Below, piece after piece: positions 195 through 46,579 of a stretch of DNA of 64,000 bases (its first letter is position 1; each line of letters begins with the position of its first letter). Location of the stretch: the NCBI GenBank assembly GCA_944368815.1, contig CALVXD010000001.1, forward strand, positions 13,093-77,092, in the 5' to 3' direction. The stretch is from an uncultured Bacilli bacterium. GTDB taxonomy: Bacteria > Bacillota_I > Bacilli_A > RF39 > UBA660. The notes beneath the pieces are model-generated. The model was not told the DNA's origin. It did no database searches and was given only the letters and a program-made list of their open reading frames with translations. The position numbers were made by a program, and so were the translations under genes.

Positions 195-3100
195 TTAAAA
201 TAAACTTAATTGATTTGTTTCAGACATATCATTGAAAAGTCCCATTATTTTCATTTTATCAATTAATGTTTGTGATACTCTACATCTTTTTTGGAAATCT
301 TCAATACTAATAAATGTAGATTTTTCTCTTTCATTAACAATTGCTTCTGCTACACTTTCACCAAGTCCATCTAATGCTCTAAATGGTATGTATAATCCTT
401 TACCATCTTCAGTTATTACGAAGTCTTTGGCATCTGATTTATCTATATCAATATTTTTAAAATAGAATCCTCTTGCACACATCTCTAAACATAGATATAA
501 AACTCCACAAGTATCTATTTCTTTTTTACTAGCAGTTTTATTAGAAATTTTTTCTTCTATTTCATCTATTTTATTTCTAATACCATTTTCTCCAAGTATC
601 ATAGATGATGGATCAAACTGATCGCATCTTATAGAAAAGTATGCTGCATAATAATATATTGGATGATGAACTTTAAACCAGGCAATTCTAAAAGCACTTG
701 TTACATACGCTGTTGCATGGGCTTTTGGGAACATGTATTTTATTTTTCTACATGACTCGATATACCATTCAGGAATTCCTGCTTCTCTCATTGTTTCTAC
801 ATGACCTTCCCAAGTTGCAGGATCTTTACTAGCTTTTCCTTTACGAACAAATTCCATTATTTTAAAGGCTTTCGCTGGTTTCATTCCCCATGCAATTAAG
901 TTAACCATAATGTCATCACGACACCCAATTACATTTTTAAATGGAACTTTAATTTCACCATTTTCATCAGGTGTACACAAATCTCTTGCATTCCCTAACC
1001 ATACGTCAGTACCATGGGATAGTCCTGATATTTTAATAAGTTCTGCAAATGTTGTTGGTTTAGTTTCTTCTAACATTCCAAGTAAGAATGATGTACCAAA
1101 TTCAGGAATTCCGAGTGTTCCAGTTGGACAATATTTTCTTCCATTTTTATCTGTAAGTCCTCTTAATCTATCTTTTTCTACTCCAAGAACTTCCGGGCCA
1201 CAGAATATCTTCATCGTATCTCTGTCTCCTAAGTCTATTTTAGTAACATCTATTCCTGATAAATCTTGAAGTTTTCTAAGTACAGTCGGATCATCGTGTC
1301 CTAGTATATCTAGTTTTAACAAATCCGCATCAATAGCATGGTAATCAAAGTGAGTAGTTCTCCACACACTTGTGGGATCATCCGCTGGATATTGGAATGG
1401 TGTAAAATCCCAGACATCTTTATATCCCGGAACTACTACTATTCCTCCAGGGTGTTGTCCTGTTGTTCTTTTAACTCCTGTACATCCCACTGATACTCTT
1501 TCTACTTCTGCTACTCTAGCACTTACTTTTAGTAACTTTTTCTTCTTTAAATCATCTTTACTAGGAACTGACAAGCCATAACTATTTGCTTCTATTTTAA
1601 GAACATTATGAGCTTGTTCTTCATAGAATCCTAAAACATAACCATATGCTGTTTTATCTGCAACTGTACCAATAGTCCCTGCCCTATATACATTATCTGT
1701 TCCAAATAATACTTTTGTATATTCATGAGCTGATGCTTGGTTATCTCCGCTAAAGTTAAGGTCAATATCAGGGACTTTATCAGCATTGAAACCTAAGAAA
1801 GTAGCAAACGGCATATCATTTCCTTCGTGTACCATTTTTGATTCACATTTTGGACACATTCTTTCTGGTAAATCAAAACCGCTAGCATAATTTTTAGATA
1901 AAGGATTACCCTTTTCATCATTAAAAATACTATATCCACAATTAGGGCAATAATAATGTGCTGGTAATCCATTACATTCTGTTATTCCCATCATATTGGC
2001 AACGAGAGATGAACCAACAGAACCACGTGATCCTACTAAGTATCCATCATCATTTGAGTGCTTAACTAACTTTTGGGCAATTAAGTAAATAACGTCAAAG
2101 CCTCCACCAATGATACCTCCTAATGATGCTTTAGCTTTTTCTATCGCAACTTCATCAGTTAAAGTATTATCTTCTCTTTGCATCTTTTCTTTAACTAAGT
2201 TAACTACCCCATCATATCCACTCATAATAACATCATGAAGTACACTAGGTAACATTTTATCTTTTTTATTTTCATCCAAGTCAGGATAATCTAAATTAAT
2301 CTTATCTTTTACAAGTCCTAAAATAGTATCACCATAAAATTCTTGAGCAATTCTCTCTTCAATCATCCTAGGAAGGGGATTACCATACATGCTATGTGCT
2401 TTAGTATAAACTAAATCACGACATGTCTCCTGTGAATGTTCAATAATTGGCGAATATGGTTTATCAGGATATTCTACTACTTCTATTTCACTAATCATAT
2501 CTAATATTTTATTAGGGTTAACTACTACTATTTCATTAATCAAGTCTTCATCTTCTAACCAAGAAAATTCTTCTTTCATTTCATTAGTAGTTCTTAAGAA
2601 TTGATTAGGTATATGACCACTTACAGATAATTTAGTGGGTTCATAATAACGGAAATCATCTACAAGAGAATATACTATTTTTTCATCTTTAGTTCTAAGT
2701 TCTATAATATTTAAAGATTGGAACTTTCTAAGAGCATCTTCTATTTTACTCTTCTTATATTCTTCTTTAGATTTTAATATTTCTTCTTCTTTATTATTTT
2801 TATCTATTTGATATAACTCTACTAAATTCATAAGAGTAATTGGAATATCTTTAACATTAGTTAAAGTGTAAATATATTTAAGTACCTTTACATCAATAGA
2901 AGTTAACTCTACTCCCTTAGTTTTTACATACTCTATTAGATTTTCTATATTTTCATTATTGACATTACCTTTAAGATTCCCTGACAAATATCTAGCAAGA
3001 GGATGTCTACCTTTACCAGGAACATTTTGATTTACAATAATTTCTCTATATAATACATCTTCTTTATTTATATTATGTACGTCTCCAGTTGCCACAATTA

Positions 3101-5882
3101 ATTTATTGCATTTTTTAGCACAATAAATTATTTTCTTTATACATTTTTTTAAGTGCTCTATATTATTTATATCGTGTCCTTTTAACAAATGGGAATAGTT
3201 TTCTATTGGTTGTACTTCAATATAATCATAAAACTCCATTGCCTTCATTAAGTCTTCTTCATTACGAGTTTCTGCTAAATAGAAAATTTCTCCATTAAGA
3301 CAAGCAGAACCTATAAGTAATCCTTCTCTGTTTTCTTCGATTAATTTTCTAGGTATTTTAGCATTTCTTACAATAAAGTTAGTATTTGCATAACTAATTA
3401 TTTTAAATAAATTTTTAAGTCCTACTTTATCTTTTGCTAAAAATGTAACATGCTTAGTATTATCATATAAATTAGCAATATGTTCTGTAATCGTTTTTCC
3501 AGGAATATTCTCATACATTTGTAAATAATTATCATGACACCAAGGATACTTCCATATATATTCCTTATTGTTGTATCCTATAAATGGATATCCCCTTTTT
3601 TCATCCTCTTCTATATTATTCGTACAAGGCTCGACATAATTTTTATAACTGCATAAATCATGTATATTTTCTAGTTTTTTAGGATCATTTTTAAATGAAA
3701 TTTCTTCTAGTAATTTCAAATCATTTAACTCACTAATTTTATTAATTCCTTCAATTTGTTTTAACATTTTAGCAAATATATAACCAGTATTTTCTGAGTC
3801 AACATCCGCACCATGGTGTTGTCCAACATATATTTTAATTTTAATGGTATTAAATTCATCAATATTTACTACTTCTTCATTTTCTGCTGGATGTAATTTT
3901 ATATCTTTTTCTATTACATTATTATCTTTTAAATTAATTATTAAATGACAAGTTTCTGTTTTACTAGCCTTACGAACTTTGTTTAAATAAGTTCCTTCTT
4001 CGGTAGTTTTTAATATAGATTCACCATCTACCTTTATATCTTCTAATTTATTTAGTAAATAATTATCTAATTTTACACTACTACTTGGTACTCCACTTGC
4101 ATTTTCTTCATCTTCTTCATCTGCTTCTCCGGTATTTATTCCGTAAAATTTACCTAACGCTTTTAAACTATGTTTCTTTAAGTCCCTATTTATTACTCTA
4201 GATAACATAAGTGTATCTATGATTGGATTTTCTAACTTACCTAAATCATATTTATAATAGGCCATATCTAACATATTTTTATCAAATCTTGCATTATGTG
4301 CTACTAAAGGTAAAGTACCAATCCATTCTTTAAATCTTTTTACAACATTTTCTTCATTGTCAGAATCTTTTACATCATCATCTGATATATCTGTAACTCT
4401 TGTTATTTCTTCATCAATATGATGACCAGGATTAATTAATTCATCAAAACGATCTACAACTTCTCCATTTTTTAATTTAACTGCACCAAGTTCAATCATT
4501 GAGTCTCCCAAACCTGGATTAAATCCTGTTGTTTCAGTATCGAATATTACGAATGTATTATTTTCGATTAATTCATCATTCGGATTAAAACATACATTTA
4601 AATATGATTCACACATATCTATTTCGCTACCATATGCTACTTTAAAATATTTTAAATTATCTTTTTCTTTTATAGCATTTTCAAGTTCTATATTTAATTC
4701 ATCTAAACCTTCTGTTTTACCTTCATTAGTAAGTGTTTCTATTTTACCTTTAATTTCTTCTATTTTAGCAGTTGTTGCTTTCTTTAATCCTTTATTATAA
4801 CTAGTAACTTCCCCGAAAACATGAGGAAAAGCTTGACAACAATCGTGATCAGTAATAGCGATACCAGGGTGTCCAAATTTAATTGCCTGTTTAACTAATT
4901 TTACTTCATCACATACTCCATCCATTTGACTCATCATTGTATGAGCATGTAATTCCACTCTTTTTTCTTTGGCATCATCTGCTCTTTTATTTTCTTCTTG
5001 TCCATCAATTGCAGTAATATCTTTAAATCTTGTATTGAATACTAATTCTTTTGCAAATTCATCTGTTACTACTTTTCCATAGAATCTATAGTACTTTCCT
5101 TCTTTTAATAAATCTTTAAGTCTTGCAAACTCATCTTCACTTTTAGTAAATATTTTTGCATACATACTATCAGTACCATCAGTAACTTTTAAAGTAAATA
5201 TTTTATATCCACTTTTAGATTCAAATATATCTATTCCAAATAATTTTATTTCAATATTTATATTATCTATTTCATTTTTAATGTCTTTTATTGAAACTAC
5301 ATCTTCACTTTTCTTTTCACGATAATTATTCTTAACTTCTTTTTTTTCTTCAAAAACATAAGTTTCATTTACAACTTTATCTTCTTCAATTTGTTTTAAT
5401 AATTCATCTTCCCCTGTATTATCCATTACTATATTTAATTTATAATAATACCCATATTTTCTAAGTCTATCATTAATTCGTTCTAATTCTTGTAGTAAAT
5501 AAGCTTTTTCTATTTTATTATATACTTTTATTTCAATGTTATCTTCATTAACTATTATTTCTCTATCCTTAAATATATTATATTTGCTACTACTTTTAAT
5601 TAAACTATCAATAATTAAATTAAAATATTCATTAAGATACTCGTTATCTTTATTTTTACTAATAATAGTTAAATCTATTTTGTCAACATTAAATGATTCT
5701 GATAATTTATTATTTAAATAAGTATATACATAACTAGGTATATTATTATCTACTATAATAACAAATTCCCATAATTTAGTTTTATCATATACTATTATTT
5801 TTTCTAATTCGCTGTTATCAAAATATTCCATATATTTATCTAAATTTATTTGTTTAAATAATTTTTCTAATTTACTACTCAT
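195..5882 (-). CDS. polC: DNA polymerase III PolC (Gram-positive type), unusually long at 1895 aa
   Basis: PHP motif VELHAHTMMSQMDG; DEDD exonuclease FVIFDTETTGFNP..VAHNARFDKNML; polymerase core GYLVGSRGSVGSS, CPNCG/CPKC zinc motif, KVPDIDLNFSG; C-terminal NQLSLF as in B. subtilis PolC. Promoter-like TGaTTATAAT and a GGTGG RBS lie upstream. Confidence 0.92.
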   Translation of the reverse strand: MSSKLEKLFKQINLDKYMEYFDNSELEKIIVYDKTKLWEFVIIVDNNIPSYVYTYLNNKLSESFNVDKIDLTIISKNKDNEYLNEYFNLIIDSLIKSSSKYNIFKDREIIVNEDNIEIKVYNKIEKAYLLQELERINDRLRKYGYYYKLNIVMDNTGEDELLKQIEEDKVVNETYVFEEKKEVKNNYREKKSEDVVSIKDIKNEIDNINIEIKLFGIDIFESKSGYKIFTLKVTDGTDSMYAKIFTKSEDEFARLKDLLKEGKYYRFYGKVVTDEFAKELVFNTRFKDITAIDGQEENKRADDAKEKRVELHAHTMMSQMDGVCDEVKLVKQAIKFGHPGIAITDHDCCQAFPHVFGEVTSYNKGLKKATTAKIEEIKGKIETLTNEGKTEGLDELNIELENAIKEKDNLKYFKVAYGSEIDMCESYLNVCFNPNDELIENNTFVIFDTETTGFNPGLGDSMIELGAVKLKNGEVVDRFDELINPGHHIDEEITRVTDISDDDVKDSDNEENVVKRFKEWIGTLPLVAHNARFDKNMLDMAYYKYDLGKLENPIIDTLMLSRVINRDLKKHSLKALGKFYGINTGEADEEDEENASGVPSSSVKLDNYLLNKLEDIKVDGESILKTTEEGTYLNKVRKASKTETCHLIINLKDNNVIEKDIKLHPAENEEVVNIDEFNTIKIKIYVGQHHGADVDSENTGYIFAKMLKQIEGINKISELNDLKLLEEISFKNDPKKLENIHDLCSYKNYVEPCTNNIEEDEKRGYPFIGYNNKEYIWKYPWCHDNYLQMYENIPGKTITEHIANLYDNTKHVTFLAKDKVGLKNLFKIISYANTNFIVRNAKIPRKLIEENREGLLIGSACLNGEIFYLAETRNEEDLMKAMEFYDYIEVQPIENYSHLLKGHDINNIEHLKKCIKKIIYCAKKCNKLIVATGDVHNINKEDVLYREIIVNQNVPGKGRHPLARYLSGNLKGNVNNENIENLIEYVKTKGVELTSIDVKVLKYIYTLTNVKDIPITLMNLVELYQIDKNNKEEEILKSKEEYKKSKIEDALRKFQSLNIIELRTKDEKIVYSLVDDFRYYEPTKLSVSGHIPNQFLRTTNEMKEEFSWLEDEDLINEIVVVNPNKILDMISEIEVVEYPDKPYSPIIEHSQETCRDLVYTKAHSMYGNPLPRMIEERIAQEFYGDTILGLVKDKINLDYPDLDENKKDKMLPSVLHDVIMSGYDGVVNLVKEKMQREDNTLTDEVAIEKAKASLGGIIGGGFDVIYLIAQKLVKHSNDDGYLVGSRGSVGSSLVANMMGITECNGLPAHYYCPNCGYSIFNDEKGNPLSKNYASGFDLPERMCPKCESKMVHEGNDMPFATFLGFNADKVPDIDLNFSGDNQASAHEYTKVLFGTDNVYRAGTIGTVADKTAYGYVLGFYEEQAHNVLKIEANSYGLSVPSKDDLKKKKLLKVSARVAEVERVSVGCTGVKRTTGQHPGGIVVVPGYKDVWDFTPFQYPADDPTSVWRTTHFDYHAIDADLLKLDILGHDDPTVLRKLQDLSGIDVTKIDLGDRDTMKIFCGPEVLGVEKDRLRGLTDKNGRKYCPTGTLGIPEFGTSFLLGMLEETKPTTFAELIKISGLSHGTDVWLGNARDLCTPDENGEIKVPFKNVIGCRDDIMVNLIAWGMKPAKAFKIMEFVRKGKASKDPATWEGHVETMREAGIPEWYIESCRKIKYMFPKAHATAYVTSAFRIAWFKVHHPIYYYAAYFSIRCDQFDPSSMILGENGIRNKIDEIEEKISNKTASKKEIDTCGVLYLCLEMCARGFYFKNIDIDKSDAKDFVITEDGKGLYIPFRALDGLGESVAEAIVNEREKSTFISIEDFQKRCRVSQTLIDKMKIMGLFNDMSETNQLSLF

Positions 5883-43483: not shown

Positions 43484-43514
43484 TATTATTTAAAATTTTT
43501 AGTTAATAATATTA

Positions 43515-43910
43515 TTGAAAGTGAGGATAATTATGGAAAAAAAGACTAATGGAAATAATTTTTTTGATACTCCAATGATACCAGATACCCAATATATGAA
43601 AGCCGATATTTATGAAGATAAAACTAAATATAATATTGATATTGATTTACCTGGTTTTAAAAAGAGCAATATTAAGGTAGTATATGAAAATGGATACTTA
43701 ATGATTAATGCTATAAAAGAAGAAGTTAAAGAAATTAAAGACAATTATATTCGAAGAGAAAGATTTTATGGAGAAGTTAAAAGAAGTTTTTATATTGGTG
43801 AAAAAAATGAAGCAGATATTAAAGCTACATATAAAGATGGAATATTAAATATATCTTTTCCTAAAGAAGAAAATAATAAAAAGAATAGTAAAATTATTAA
43901 TATAGAATAA
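43515..43910 (+). CDS. Hsp20/alpha-crystallin family small heat shock protein
   Basis: ACD core DIYEDKTKYNIDIDLPGFKKSNIKV...GEVKRSFYI...YKDGIL. Confidence 0.85.
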   Translation: MKVRIIMEKKTNGNNFFDTPMIPDTQYMKADIYEDKTKYNIDIDLPGFKKSNIKVVYENGYLMINAIKEEVKEIKDNYIRRERFYGEVKRSFYIGEKNEADIKATYKDGILNISFPKEENNKKNSKIINIE

Positions 43911-43922
43911 TTATTTATATAA

Positions 43923-43960
43923 CAAAAAAGCAAAGTAACTTTTACTACTTTGTTTTTTTT
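43923..43960. terminator. Bidirectional terminator between the hsp20 and the convergent gene
   Basis: CAAAGTA/TACTTTG hairpin flanked by A6 and T8. Confidence 0.5.
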
Positions 43961-44550
43961 CTTGAACGCTTTGATTTAGATTTATTTTTATTAAATTCAT
44001 CTATTACCATCTGTTGTGCTACATCAACAGGATTATTATATAAAAATTGATAATACATATTTCTATAATATTCAACATTACGTTGATTTATATCCTTTAA
44101 CACAAAATGATTATTTTCAAAACTTTTCCAATCATTTGTTTCTACTTCTTGACCACATTCTAAGCACTCATATTTATTACAGTAAAAATCTTTAGAATTT
44201 TCATCATCACATAGATACTTACAATCATGTTCATTTCGTGGATCTTCCCAATATCCATATGAACCTTTATAGATCCATATATCATGATTACAAGAATCAA
44301 ATGATTGACCATGAAGTCTTGATTTAAATCCCCATACAAACTCATAATAAATCATTTTTTCTAACTCGCCTTTAAATAAATTTTCATTATATGCATAGTT
44401 TGCTATTTGTTCATGTAAAAACAAATACCTTTTAACTTTTTCATCTTGCATAAGAGAATTTAATTCTGTTTTATATTTTTCTATTTTTTTAAATTCTTCC
44501 ATGGCATTATTTACTCTTTTAATAATTTCTAATCTTTCTTCTTCTTTCAT
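43945..44550 (-). CDS. Hypothetical Cys-rich protein
   Basis: 201 aa with multiple Cys (C..H..C, CxxC) and a basic K/R tail; no family assigned. Confidence 0.4.
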   Translation of the reverse strand: MKEEERLEIIKRVNNAMEEFKKIEKYKTELNSLMQDEKVKRYLFLHEQIANYAYNENLFKGELEKMIYYEFVWGFKSRLHGQSFDSCNHDIWIYKGSYGYWEDPRNEHDCKYLCDDENSKDFYCNKYECLECGQEVETNDWKSFENNHFVLKDINQRNVEYYRNMYYQFLYNNPVDVAQQMVIDEFNKNKSKSKRSRKKTK

Positions 44551-44607
44551 AACGTCCTCCTTTTAGGTTATATTATATAATAACTAAATTTAATTGTAAA
44601 TTAATTT

Positions 44608-44636
44608 TTGACAATTATAATTAATTGTGGTATTAT
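44608..44636 (+). promoter_or_regulatory. Consensus sigma-A promoter (TTGACA-17-TATTAT)
   Basis: TTGACA at 44608-44613, 17-nt spacer, TATTAT at 44631-44636. Confidence 0.5.
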
Positions 44637-44643
44637 GTATCTA

Positions 44644-44757
44644 GATGAAGGAATCTTCATATAATAGAAATGGAAAACATTTGGTTATTTTCCTAGCTGA
44701 ATGTCTACCAATTAATTAAGGTTGAGCACTCATTCTATAATGAGTGTCATTTTTTTA
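44644..44757 (+). ncRNA. Candidate small RNA or leader (about 114 nt) from the promoter to an intrinsic terminator
   Basis: Hairpins GAAGgaatcCUUC and GGAAAAcauuugguuaUUUUCC; terminator CACUCAUU-cuau-AAUGAGUG plus U7 at 44726-44757. Confidence 0.35.
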
Positions 44758-44789
44758 TTGCTATTACCAATAAGGTAAGGAGTAATAAA

Positions 44790-44906
44790 ATGATAGAAAT
44801 ATATCTAAGAACTTTTATAGTAAAAATTCTCTTTGACATTTTATCAAACCTCCTCTCTATTATAATTGGAGGTAGACACTCAGTAACTAATGTTTTCCAC
44901 ATCTAA
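44790..44906 (+). CDS. Small hydrophobic peptide (38 aa)
   Basis: RBS AAGGAGT 7 nt upstream of the ATG; MIEIYLRTFIVKILFDILSNLLSIIIGGRHSVTNVFHI. Confidence 0.3.
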   Translation: MIEIYLRTFIVKILFDILSNLLSIIIGGRHSVTNVFHI

Positions 44907-45054
44907 TTTTATTATTATAATATATATTAATCAATATACTTAACGCATATTTTACTATTAATTTTATTAAAATATGATTATATTTTTATCATTATAATAT
45001 AACTATTTTACTTATTTATTCATAAATGTTATAATTACATCTAGAGGTGAAACG

Positions 45055-45927
45055 ATGATTAATATTAGTGATAAGTGGAAAGATTATGAATGTATATTAA
45101 CTGGTGATGGAGAAAAATTAGAAAGATGGGGAAATATTATCCTAAGAAGACCAGATCCTCAAATCATATGGAATAAAGATAATTTTGATATATGGAATAA
45201 ATATGATGCTTTCTATCATAGAAGTAATAAAGGCGGAGGTTATTGGGAATACAATAAAAAATTACCAGAATTTTGGACTATAAACTATAATAATTTAACT
45301 TTTAAAGTAAGTCCTACTAATTTTAAGCATACAGGCATATTTCCTGAACAAGCTACTAACTGGGATTATGTTACTGAAAAAATAAAAGAATTTAAAAATA
45401 GTAATAAAGAAGAGATGCGAATTCTTAATTTATTTGCATATACAGGATGTGCTACAATGGCTGCTTCTGCTGCTGGAGCGGATGAAGTTGTACATGTTGA
45501 TGCTTCTAAAGGTATGATTGAATGGGCTAAAGAAAATATGCACCTATCTAATTTAGATAATAATAAAATAAGATTTATAGTAGATGATGTAATAAAATTT
45601 TTAGAAAGAGAAAAAAGAAGAGGTAGAACTTATCACGGTATTATTATGGATCCTCCTAGTTATGGAAGAGGTCCTAATAAAGAAGTATGGAGACTTGAAG
45701 ATAATTTAAAAGAACTATTAGATAAAACTAAAGATGTACTTGATCCTAATTATTCATTTTTATTAATTAATTCTTATACAACAGGAGTATCTCCAATTTC
45801 TCTTAATAATTTACTTAGTTTAACTTTTAATAATGCTAATGTTGAAACAGGAGAAATAGGGCTACCTGTTACTAAAAATAATCTTATCTTGCCTTGTGGT
45901 ATATATGGAAAAGTTACAAGAAAATAA
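45055..45927 (+). CDS. Class I SAM-dependent methyltransferase (RlmI/RlmK-like rRNA methyltransferase family)
   Basis: SAM-binding LNLFAYTGCATMAASAAGADEVVHVDAS and IIMDPPSYGRG (DPP motif). Confidence 0.7.
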   Translation: MINISDKWKDYECILTGDGEKLERWGNIILRRPDPQIIWNKDNFDIWNKYDAFYHRSNKGGGYWEYNKKLPEFWTINYNNLTFKVSPTNFKHTGIFPEQATNWDYVTEKIKEFKNSNKEEMRILNLFAYTGCATMAASAAGADEVVHVDASKGMIEWAKENMHLSNLDNNKIRFIVDDVIKFLEREKRRGRTYHGIIMDPPSYGRGPNKEVWRLEDNLKELLDKTKDVLDPNYSFLLINSYTTGVSPISLNNLLSLTFNNANVETGEIGLPVTKNNLILPCGIYGKVTRK

Positions 45928-46579
45928 TATAATATATGAAGATAATCATATTATAGTAGTTAATAAACCTGTAAATATTCCTGTTCAAGAAGATAGTAGT
46001 AAAGATATAGATTTACTTACATTAATAAAAAATTATTTAAAAGTTAAATATAATAAACCAGGTAATGTATATTTAGGACTTGTACATAGGTTAGATAGAC
46101 CTGTCGGTGGCATTATGGTATTTGCCAAAACTTCTAAGGCTGCTTCTAGATTATCAGAAGAAGTTAGAACTAATAAAATTAATAAAACTTATTATGCCGT
46201 TGTTCATGGAAAAGTTAACAATAACGGTCATTTAGAAGATTATTTATATAAAGATAATAAAACTAATACTTCTTATGTAGTAGATAAAACAAAAGGAAAA
46301 CTTGCTATATTAGATTACGAATTAACCCAATATAAAGATAATTTAAGTTTAGTTAAAATTAATTTAATTACAGGAAGATCTCATCAAATAAGAGTACAAT
46401 TTTCGTCACGTGGATACCCTTTAGTAGGAGACCAACGTTATAATAAAAATCCTATAAAAAATATAAGTATTGCTTTATTTGCTAAAAGATTAGAATTTAT
46501 ACATCCTATAAAAAAAGAACATCTATCATTTGAAATTAATCTTCCCGATAGATATCCGTTTAATATATTTAATATTTAA
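45896..46579 (+). CDS. RluA family pseudouridine synthase
   Basis: Catalytic motif HRLDRPVGGIMVFAKT; overlaps the upstream methyltransferase gene. The true start may be MEKLQ at 45905. Confidence 0.8.
   Translation: MVYMEKLQENNIIYEDNHIIVVNKPVNIPVQEDSSKDIDLLTLIKNYLKVKYNKPGNVYLGLVHRLDRPVGGIMVFAKTSKAASRLSEEVRTNKINKTYYAVVHGKVNNNGHLEDYLYKDNKTNTSYVVDKTKGKLAILDYELTQYKDNLSLVKINLITGRSHQIRVQFSSRGYPLVGDQRYNKNPIKNISIALFAKRLEFIHPIKKEHLSFEINLPDRYPFNIFNI

Follow-up and report, generated by a model that had tools for sequence, protein, structure and literature searches.

A putative type I toxin–antitoxin-like module of two convergent genes, present in many copies in uncultured gut Bacilli

We examined an intergenic locus (positions 44608–44934) in a 64,000-nucleotide (nt) stretch of DNA from an uncultured Bacilli bacterium; this whole stretch is called the window below. 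The locus holds two convergent units, a small RNA (sRNA) gene on the plus strand and, on the minus strand, a gene for a short hydrophobic peptide, and it belongs to a family with many copies in related genomes. We note that RNAs, peptide and functions are all predicted from sequence.

The sRNA gene (44608–44757, plus strand) starts with a strong predicted promoter at 44608–44636, in which TTGACA is separated by a 17-nt spacer from an extended -10 element, TGgTATTAT. This promoter scored 11/12 plus TG, the joint top score within 43500–46000, and the site that ties with it (minus strand, 44600–44572) lacks the TG. The RNA itself, a candidate antitoxin of about 112–115 nt (44643–44757), is predicted to open within 1–2 nt of its 5' end with a hairpin, HP1 (AUGAAG-GAAU-CUUCAU, 44645–44660), that is nearly invariant in the family. 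HP1 is followed by an A-rich linker at 44661–44670 (AUAAUAGAAA in the window, AUAAUAAAAAA in most copies), which forms a U-rich tail when read on the minus strand, and by HP2, a variable hairpin closed by UGG/CCA (44671–44710). The last element, HP3 (44726–44756), was called by a terminator scan as an intrinsic terminator, with a stem of nine pairs (44726–44747), three of them G-C, and a T7 run at 44750–44756.

Positions 44640–44760 folded as three hairpins at -28.8 kcal/mol, with a minimum free energy (MFE) z-score of -3.0 relative to dinucleotide shuffles. We also built a covariance model, R1, from relatives of the window sRNA. It had just two matches in the window, both with E of about 1e-11: this locus (44641–44753, 76.8 bits, E 2.5e-11) and a second copy at the window start (80.1 bits). 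By both measures the window sRNA is more than a chance structure. The preliminary description of this DNA had read the TTGACA-17-TATTAT promoter, two internal hairpins and a transcript length of about 114 nt in the same way, and its terminator with seven U residues is also present, except that the stem has nine pairs and not 8 bp. The Rfam scan that it had proposed as a check yielded no family for the sRNA: nothing matched at the locus even at E up to 10, and at the gathering score the whole window gave RNase P class B alone. Across 17 diverse loci searched at the gathering score, nothing fell on the module, and RNase P, tRNAs and a T-box were found elsewhere only. We rejected a reading of the terminator (GCACTC-N10-GAGTGT) as an element like CIRCE (controlling inverted repeat of chaperone expression), given its wrong spacing, the T7 run that follows it and a stem that covaries freely in relatives.

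On the minus strand, an open reading frame (ORF) at 44747–44839 encodes a toxin-like peptide of 30 amino acids (aa), MSKRIFTIKVLRYISIILLLLTLLVIAIKK, with its ATG at 44839 and its TGA at 44749–44747. The peptide is predicted to have a basic N-terminus and one transmembrane stretch. The ORF is convergent with the sRNA gene, and its stop codon lies inside the sRNA terminator, abutting the 3' edge of the stem. A Shine-Dalgarno (SD) sequence, (A)GGAGGU, is found 8–9 nt 5' of the ATG (44848–44853), and an anti-SD, ACCUCC (44868–44873), is predicted to pair with it in an SD-sequestering hairpin, with an SD pairing probability of 1.0 in the window copy. Farther upstream are hairpin A (GGAAAACAUU...GAGUGUCUACC, 44871–44898), which is recognized as a twin of HP2 by inverted repeats I7 and I11 and would form the 5' end of the peptide mRNA, and a candidate promoter, TTGATT-17-TAAAAT (44906–44934, 9/12), with a predicted start near 44899. 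Inverted repeats (44665–81/44889–905 and 44697–709/44871–883) thus tie the body of the sRNA to the 5' untranslated region (UTR) of the peptide mRNA.

This arrangement differs from the preliminary description, which had paired the sRNA with a 38-aa ORF on the plus strand and had seen nothing else annotated in the gap. The 38-aa ORF exists (44790–44906, with AAGGAG 7 nt upstream), but it was kept only in near-identical strains and showed non-coding substitutions; it runs antisense to the peptide ORF and its 5' UTR and lies outside the system. Its supposedly good ribosome-binding site is the reverse complement of the Leu codons CTC CTT in the opposite-strand ORF, and the gap in fact contains, on the minus strand, the convergent 30-aa ORF together with a promoter and an AGGAGG SD of its own. 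The description's idea of a type I toxin-like module stands, with the toxin candidate being the 30-aa peptide of the opposite strand instead of the 38-aa product. An exact look-up among 15 billion catalogued proteins found none of the three candidate peptide sequences of the window.

Relatives of the module were common in genomes of uncultured gut Bacilli. We collected the family by a genome scan with the exact HP1 motif, AGATGRAGGAANCTTCATATAAT, which returned 127 copies on 112 stretches from approximately 60 species-level metagenome-assembled genomes (MAGs). These MAGs derive from human, rabbit, chicken and ruminant samples, and they carry the labels Bacilli, Tenericutes, Erysipelotrichaceae, Ca. 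Coprosoma (including Ca. Coprosoma intestinipullorum), Clostridium sp. CAG:451 and Coprobacillus sp. CAG:605. In 100 of the loci from the motif scan, R1 detected 143 copies of the ~112-nt RNA, 31 of them without the exact search motif. All copies shared one order of elements: a TG-extended -10, HP1, AUAAUAAAAAAGG, a variable HP2 closed by GG/CC, a spacer and a variable HP3. Of 87 copies, 86 had a -10 hexamer whose end lies exactly 6 nt upstream of AGATG, and the TG was present in 98%. Flanking genes varied among copies, with many unrelated contexts, and copies often stood in tandem, repeating about every 370 nt, with as many as five units in an array. Tandem arrays of three to five copies were seen, for example, in loci L034 (1184–2769), L090, L092 and L005, and some of these mix two or three HP2/HP3 sequence types. 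The HP1 motif string was absent from the searchable literature.

The structure of the sRNA was conserved across these copies. In an alignment of 56 diverse copies (A2), analysed with RNAalifold and by pair counting, 23 pairs were predicted, 17 of which had compensatory changes. Of the alignment cells at these positions, 93.2% were paired, compared with 30%–42% when the partners were slid, and 170 cells showed double changes, compared with 54±6 in shuffles, a value that 0 of 500 shuffles reached. Double changes affected all eight pairs of HP2 and all nine pairs of HP3. The preliminary description had suggested conservation and covariation in related genomes as a check on its promoter-to-terminator sRNA, and the R1 copies and covarying hairpins bear this out. 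From sequence comparison, then, the sRNA is a conserved structured family.

HP1 showed a different pattern, as it was invariant within A2, and its sequence, beyond its structure, was near-fixed across the ~60 species. Its loop was of the GNRA type in most copies, mainly GAAA, and is GAAU in the window. The 31 R1 copies without the exact motif included HP1 variants with compensatory stem changes, such as AUGAAA...UUUCAU and GUCAAG...CUUGA, and because these rare variants retain the stem, HP1 appears to act as an RNA hairpin. A role as a DNA operator (ATGAAG-N4-CTTCAT) was considered and rejected, since LexA, cre and Rex boxes do not fit in consensus positions or spacing, and the compensatory variants favour a role in RNA. 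RNA decay in Firmicutes can depend on the 5' end. By analogy, the compact 5'-terminal GNRA hairpin may most simply be read as a guard of the RNA 5' end.

Evidence that the opposite-strand peptide is encoded came from its recurrence and from its substitutions. Under strict criteria (a convergent hydrophobic ORF of 17–45 aa, preceded by an SD and ending at the 3' end of the RNA), 104 of 133 unique full-length copies carried the peptide ORF. These gave 74 distinct peptides of 22–38 aa, with K or R at positions 2–5 in 97% and a mean hydropathy of 2.56 after residue 6. They usually read M-x-K-K/R-D/E-F and then some 20 hydrophobic residues, often with K or KK last. Type I toxins are expected to be encoded by short hydrophobic membrane-type ORFs (<70 aa), and the window ORF and the 74 family peptides are all of this kind. 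Across 43 nearest-neighbour pairs, substitutions in the peptide frame were distributed over codon positions as 118/58/170, and the ratio of synonymous to non-synonymous changes was 128:148, compared with 22–82:204–264 in the other five frames. Judged by these substitutions, the opposite-strand frame is the coding one. Approximately 22% of R1 matches had an intact RNA beside a peptide ORF that was frameshifted, 5'-truncated, SD-less or missing, and one copy had lost its stop codon. Such broken copies include L055, L101, L043, L088, L086, L091 and L008 (7413–7524), and in L101 and L043 an identical foreign sequence replaces the 5' half of the toxin gene. Because the family was gathered through the RNA, this asymmetry is no more than suggestive.

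The predicted peptide mRNA had a conserved organization as well. Peptide promoters were found at the equivalent position in relatives, mostly as TGnTATAAT, and across the family the promoter is followed by hairpin A and directly by the anti-SD that pairs with the SD. The probability of SD pairing was high in the family (mean 0.83, median 0.99) compared with 25 ordinary genes of the window (mean 0.43, median 0.38; p = 2e-8). At the other end of the transcript, 89% of copies had five or more A residues in the 8 nt that precede HP2, and for HP3 the figure was only 2%. With this A-run before HP2 and no U-tract at the HP3 complement, the peptide mRNA probably terminates at the HP2 complement and its U-rich tail, and in the window would run from about 44899 to 44662. 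It would thus be about 240 nt long and would overlap the sRNA perfectly over about 95 nt, leaving HP1 outside. Extended complementarity, another trait of type I pairs, is accordingly predicted to span about 95 nt for an mRNA that stops at the HP2 complement, and amounts to at least ~11 nt within the ORF alone.

The two ends of this mRNA also appear to be related to each other. The HP2 region resembled, in the same sense, the peptide 5' UTR of its own module far better than the 5' UTRs of other, unrelated modules (z = 3.4), and the cognate UTR was the best match in 47 of 88 modules. Since HP2 is like hairpin A and the sRNA is antisense to the 3' end of the mRNA, the mRNA 5' hairpin should be complementary to the mRNA's own 3' terminal hairpin. 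Consistent with this, the predicted window mRNA (44900 to 44655) folded at -70 kcal/mol, compared with -40±4.5 in shuffles (z = -6.7). A long helix between its 5' and 3' ends appeared in both the MFE and the centroid structures, and the SD hairpin was full in the former and partly kept in the latter. The first 40 nt and the last 75 nt were joined by 10 or more MFE pairs (median 26) in 87 of the 88 transcripts predicted, a count that depends on where the 3' end is placed, compared with a median of seven such pairs in chimeras with an unrelated ORF and 3' UTR (p = 8e-36).

Other similarities and pairings were less informative. Similarity between the toxin 5' arm and HP3 was weak (z = 1.1) and clear in some subfamilies only. 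Pairing of HP1 with the toxin start region was rejected, as neither HP1 nor the linker is complementary to the initiation-region consensus. Separately, we observed that the spacer between HP2 and HP3 (44708–44721, plus strand, in the window, and also in relatives) often contains a small CC...GG hairpin, such as CCAAUUAAUUAAGG. This hairpin parallels the anti-SD/SD hairpin, so that the sRNA gene resembles the toxin 5' UTR copied in inverted orientation and without an ORF.

Together, these features suggest a type I toxin–antitoxin-like module of two convergent units at this locus, from a previously undescribed multi-copy family; we put the probability of this at roughly three in four. In the mechanism we propose, a strong plus-strand promoter would make the ~112-nt non-coding RNA with HP1, A-rich linker, HP2 and terminator HP3, and a minus-strand promoter would make the ~240-nt mRNA of the 30-residue peptide, which has a basic N-terminus and a single predicted transmembrane helix. 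Transcription of the latter would pass through the HP3 complement and most likely stop at the HP2 complement and U-run, so that the sRNA minus HP1 would be perfectly antisense, over about 95 nt, to the peptide mRNA in its last codons and 3' UTR. The peptide could then be silenced in three layers. Two would act in cis, first through the local hairpin in which the SD is paired with the anti-SD and second through pairing of the mRNA 5' hairpin with its own 3' terminal hairpin, which would close the mRNA end to end. The third would act in trans, with the sRNA pairing to the mRNA 3' region and presumably leading to duplex-dependent decay, refolding, or both, much as 3'-overlapping antitoxins do in Gram-positive bacteria. 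That the peptide is toxic, that the RNA represses it, where the transcripts end and that a nuclease takes part are points we infer from sequence.

Several observations weigh against this interpretation. The hosts are uncultured MAGs, and the peptide, like the two transcripts and their ends, is a prediction. Pfam and NCBIfam hold no known toxin family that matches the peptides, the sub-threshold matches being HokA (E = 0.12) and Ecr (E = 0.02). Because the family was gathered through the HP1 motif, the near-invariance of HP1 is partly due to ascertainment. HP3 has no U-tract on the peptide strand, and the stem of the HP2 complement is AT-rich and was not called by a simple terminator scan, which makes the length of the overlap an inferred one. 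Finally, RNAduplex energies between sRNA and 5' UTR failed to separate cognate from non-cognate pairs (z = -0.5). These energies do not discriminate and so lend no support to trans pairing of the sRNA with the 5' UTR; the module-specific signal there is same-sense similarity only.

A non-toxic small membrane protein under antisense control could also account for the pattern, for instance one with a regulatory or accessory role whose level is tuned by the convergent RNA. The same sequence evidence fits this alternative, and the best sub-threshold NCBIfam match of one peptide, Ecr (E = 0.02), is a regulatory small membrane protein. We nevertheless consider it unlikely, as tandem arrays of diverged paralogues with their own matching RNAs typify type I toxin loci, translation appears to be silenced in several layers, as would suit a product that needs to stay off, and about 22% of copies retain the RNA beside a broken peptide ORF.

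Very unlikely, in our view, is that the module is a selfish or decaying repeat without current function, such as a unit resembling a miniature inverted-repeat transposable element. Its copy number, inverted repeats and some degenerate copies are in keeping with such an origin, as is a ~690-bp indel next to the window module. Yet the promoters and SD sites are conserved, the compensatory changes in the helices and the coding signature of the ORF argue that selection is ongoing, and matches were lacking in plasmid, phage and viral collections.

We give hardly any credence to the sRNA being a leader or attenuator of, or an antitoxin for, a functional 38-aa peptide on the same strand, as the preliminary description had envisaged. 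This ORF does start about 30 nt past the terminator and is preceded by AAGGAG, but it was kept in four near-identical copies only, and 50 of 91 modules had no plus-strand ATG ORF of at least 25 aa. Its frame showed a synonymous to non-synonymous ratio of 82:204 compared with the 128:148 of the opposite frame, and between the window and L113 its product differs at four residues whereas the 30-aa peptide is identical. There was also no acceptable promoter between the terminator and its ATG. A cis-acting riboswitch or attenuator for the downstream methyltransferase and pseudouridine synthase operon can likewise be set aside as most improbable: the sRNA does lie upstream of the operon on the same strand, ends in a terminator and in some copies, such as L041, has an HP2 3' arm that could pair with the HP3 5' arm, but copies adjoin unrelated genes in arrays of up to five units with no constant class of regulated gene, the second window copy lies downstream of polC, about 300 nt and a separate promoter-like site (45007–45035) precede the methyltransferase gene, and Rfam gave no match.

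Returning to the type I interpretation, we compared the module with known type I systems. Its layout fits the 3'-overlapping arrangement of Gram-positive type I families (PMC8594479, PMC7472228), and its tandem multi-copy organization is typical of type I loci (PMC2887945). The closest architecture is that of par/Fst–RNA II from Enterococcus faecalis pAD1 and its relatives, a family that is also chromosomal in Firmicutes (PMC7472228). In both, the promoters converge, the transcripts (predicted ones, in our module) meet in the terminator region, a stem-loop sequesters the SD and the toxin mRNA has a structured 5' end, and repeats give the two RNAs a second region of relatedness (PMC7472228). 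The differences are also clear. Fst has a PXXXG motif and a charged C-terminal tail (PMC7472228), whereas our peptides have no charged tail, PXXXG occurred in 0 of 74, and no peptide matched Fst in Pfam or NCBIfam at E up to 10. Unlike RNA II (~40 nt), the antitoxin candidate is about 112 nt long with an invariant 5' hairpin, and its overlap with the mRNA, probably ~95 nt including the last codons, is unlike that of par. Instead of the DRa/DRb direct repeats that par has over the start codon, we found inverted twin hairpins upstream of the SD. The terminator is bidirectional in par; here the HP3 U-tract is on the sRNA strand only, and on the peptide strand it is the HP2 complement that has a U-tract after it.

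Similarities to other systems were more partial. In TxpA/RatA, BsrG/SR4 and YonT/SR6 of Bacillus subtilis, a convergent antisense RNA of about 100 nt covers the toxin 3' end and part of the ORF, much as predicted here (PMC8594479). We found no sequence or Rfam relationship between these systems and the module; their toxins are small membrane peptides, as is predicted for ours. TxpA, BsrG and YonT are longer (38–59 aa), with an N-terminal transmembrane segment and a polar C-terminus. Compared with these toxins, the peptides described here have a basic N-terminus and a hydrophobic remainder. The B. subtilis loci lie in prophage or prophage-like regions, whereas the module had no phage, plasmid or viral matches.

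Translation of hok mRNA is controlled by fold-back. [quoted passage not shown] Resembling hok and AapA1, the module has a predicted closure of the full-length mRNA between its 5' and 3' ends, a predicted sequestration of the SD and a peptide of about 30 aa. The hok/sok and aapA1/IsoA1 systems differ in being Gram-negative and in having an antitoxin over the 5' part of the mRNA or the ORF (PMC8594479). In our module the sRNA would be a sequence mimic of the mRNA's own 5' end, because it is antisense to the mRNA 3' end. The peptides also recall Ibs/Sib, ShoB and Zor-type toxins, which are near-purely hydrophobic, 19–30 aa long, tandem multi-copy, intergenic and usually unannotated (PMC2887945), but these come from another phylum, differ in the arrangement of their RNAs and have no similarity in sequence. 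In the literature we searched, no type I system was found reported from this uncultured gut Bacilli clade. Lacking a match in Rfam, Pfam, NCBIfam or that literature, the module, judged by its sequence features, is best filed as a new family within the known type I kind.

The second copy of the module lies at the window start, with its sRNA gene on the minus strand (52–192; promoter 192–164, HP1 from 155, terminator stem 85–66 followed by a U-run). It matches the first copy in promoter and first hairpin (blastn, 91% identity over 44 nt, E = 3e-10) and R1 over 159–59, and its body and terminator differ. The 3' part of a convergent hydrophobic ORF (...LVLALIVILYTIIAIKSK*) could be read on the plus strand at 1–57, where it is cut by the window edge; full-length relatives are present in L004, L058 and L105. 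In the subtype formed by these four copies, a conserved frame, ...LVLxLIVILYTIIAIKxK*, seems to begin at TTG after GGGAGG, and the hydrophobic frame is overlapped by an upstream ATG ORF that has a strong SD but is not conserved, recalling a mok-like leader. The neighbouring polC gene (195–5882, minus strand) encodes a protein of 1895 aa, about 450 aa longer than usual, in which some 600 residues between the exonuclease domain (445–582) and the polymerase core (from 1228) had no Pfam match.

The surroundings of the first copy differ between strains. A gene for a 201-aa Cys-rich protein (43945–44550, minus strand, with its own promoter) makes up the ~690-bp indel (43910–44598) that adjoins the module; in the near-identical strain L001 this gene is absent and the module directly follows hsp20. 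The Cys-rich protein formed a singleton cluster in the protein collection and had no Pfam domain. Elsewhere in the family, about 7 of 60 loci (L018, L033, L041, L049, L064 and L089 among them) have a tRNA gene 50–200 nt upstream of the module start, and in L033 and L089 the module sits within a tRNA cluster, between tRNA-Glu and tRNA-Ser. Given that only about 7 of 60 loci show it, we rejected tRNA association as a general trait. We found no sign of a mobile-element origin, as neither plasmid nor phage collections gave a match and the motif had 0 matches in viral contigs.

Genomes in this family carry at least 5–7 copies of the module, with mutually different HP2/HP3 "address" hairpins, whereas HP1 and the A-rich linker are common to all paralogous RNAs of a genome and lie outside the region that would pair with the toxin mRNA. 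We tentatively suggest, as a rather doubtful extension of the model, that a single host factor, either a nuclease or a protein that binds RNA, could use the shared 5' GNRA hairpin and linker as a handle and so switch all modules together; the antitoxin could also compete with the 5'-3' closure of the mRNA. If so, this factor could stabilize or destroy every antitoxin at once, although the toxin modules are otherwise orthogonal, and a common handle combined with an antitoxin that mimics the mRNA 5' end would amount to a mode of control not known from type I systems.

For annotation, the family shows that in AT-rich gaps the look of an ORF and its ribosome-binding site alone cannot settle the coding strand, and its peptides are effectively invisible to annotation. 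If confirmed, the module would add a type I toxin–antitoxin family to an uncultured gut Bacilli clade. Its dozens of diverged cognate RNA/mRNA pairs, all built on one fixed 5' hairpin, would then be a natural set for the study of antisense specificity and for the construction of orthogonal RNA regulators.

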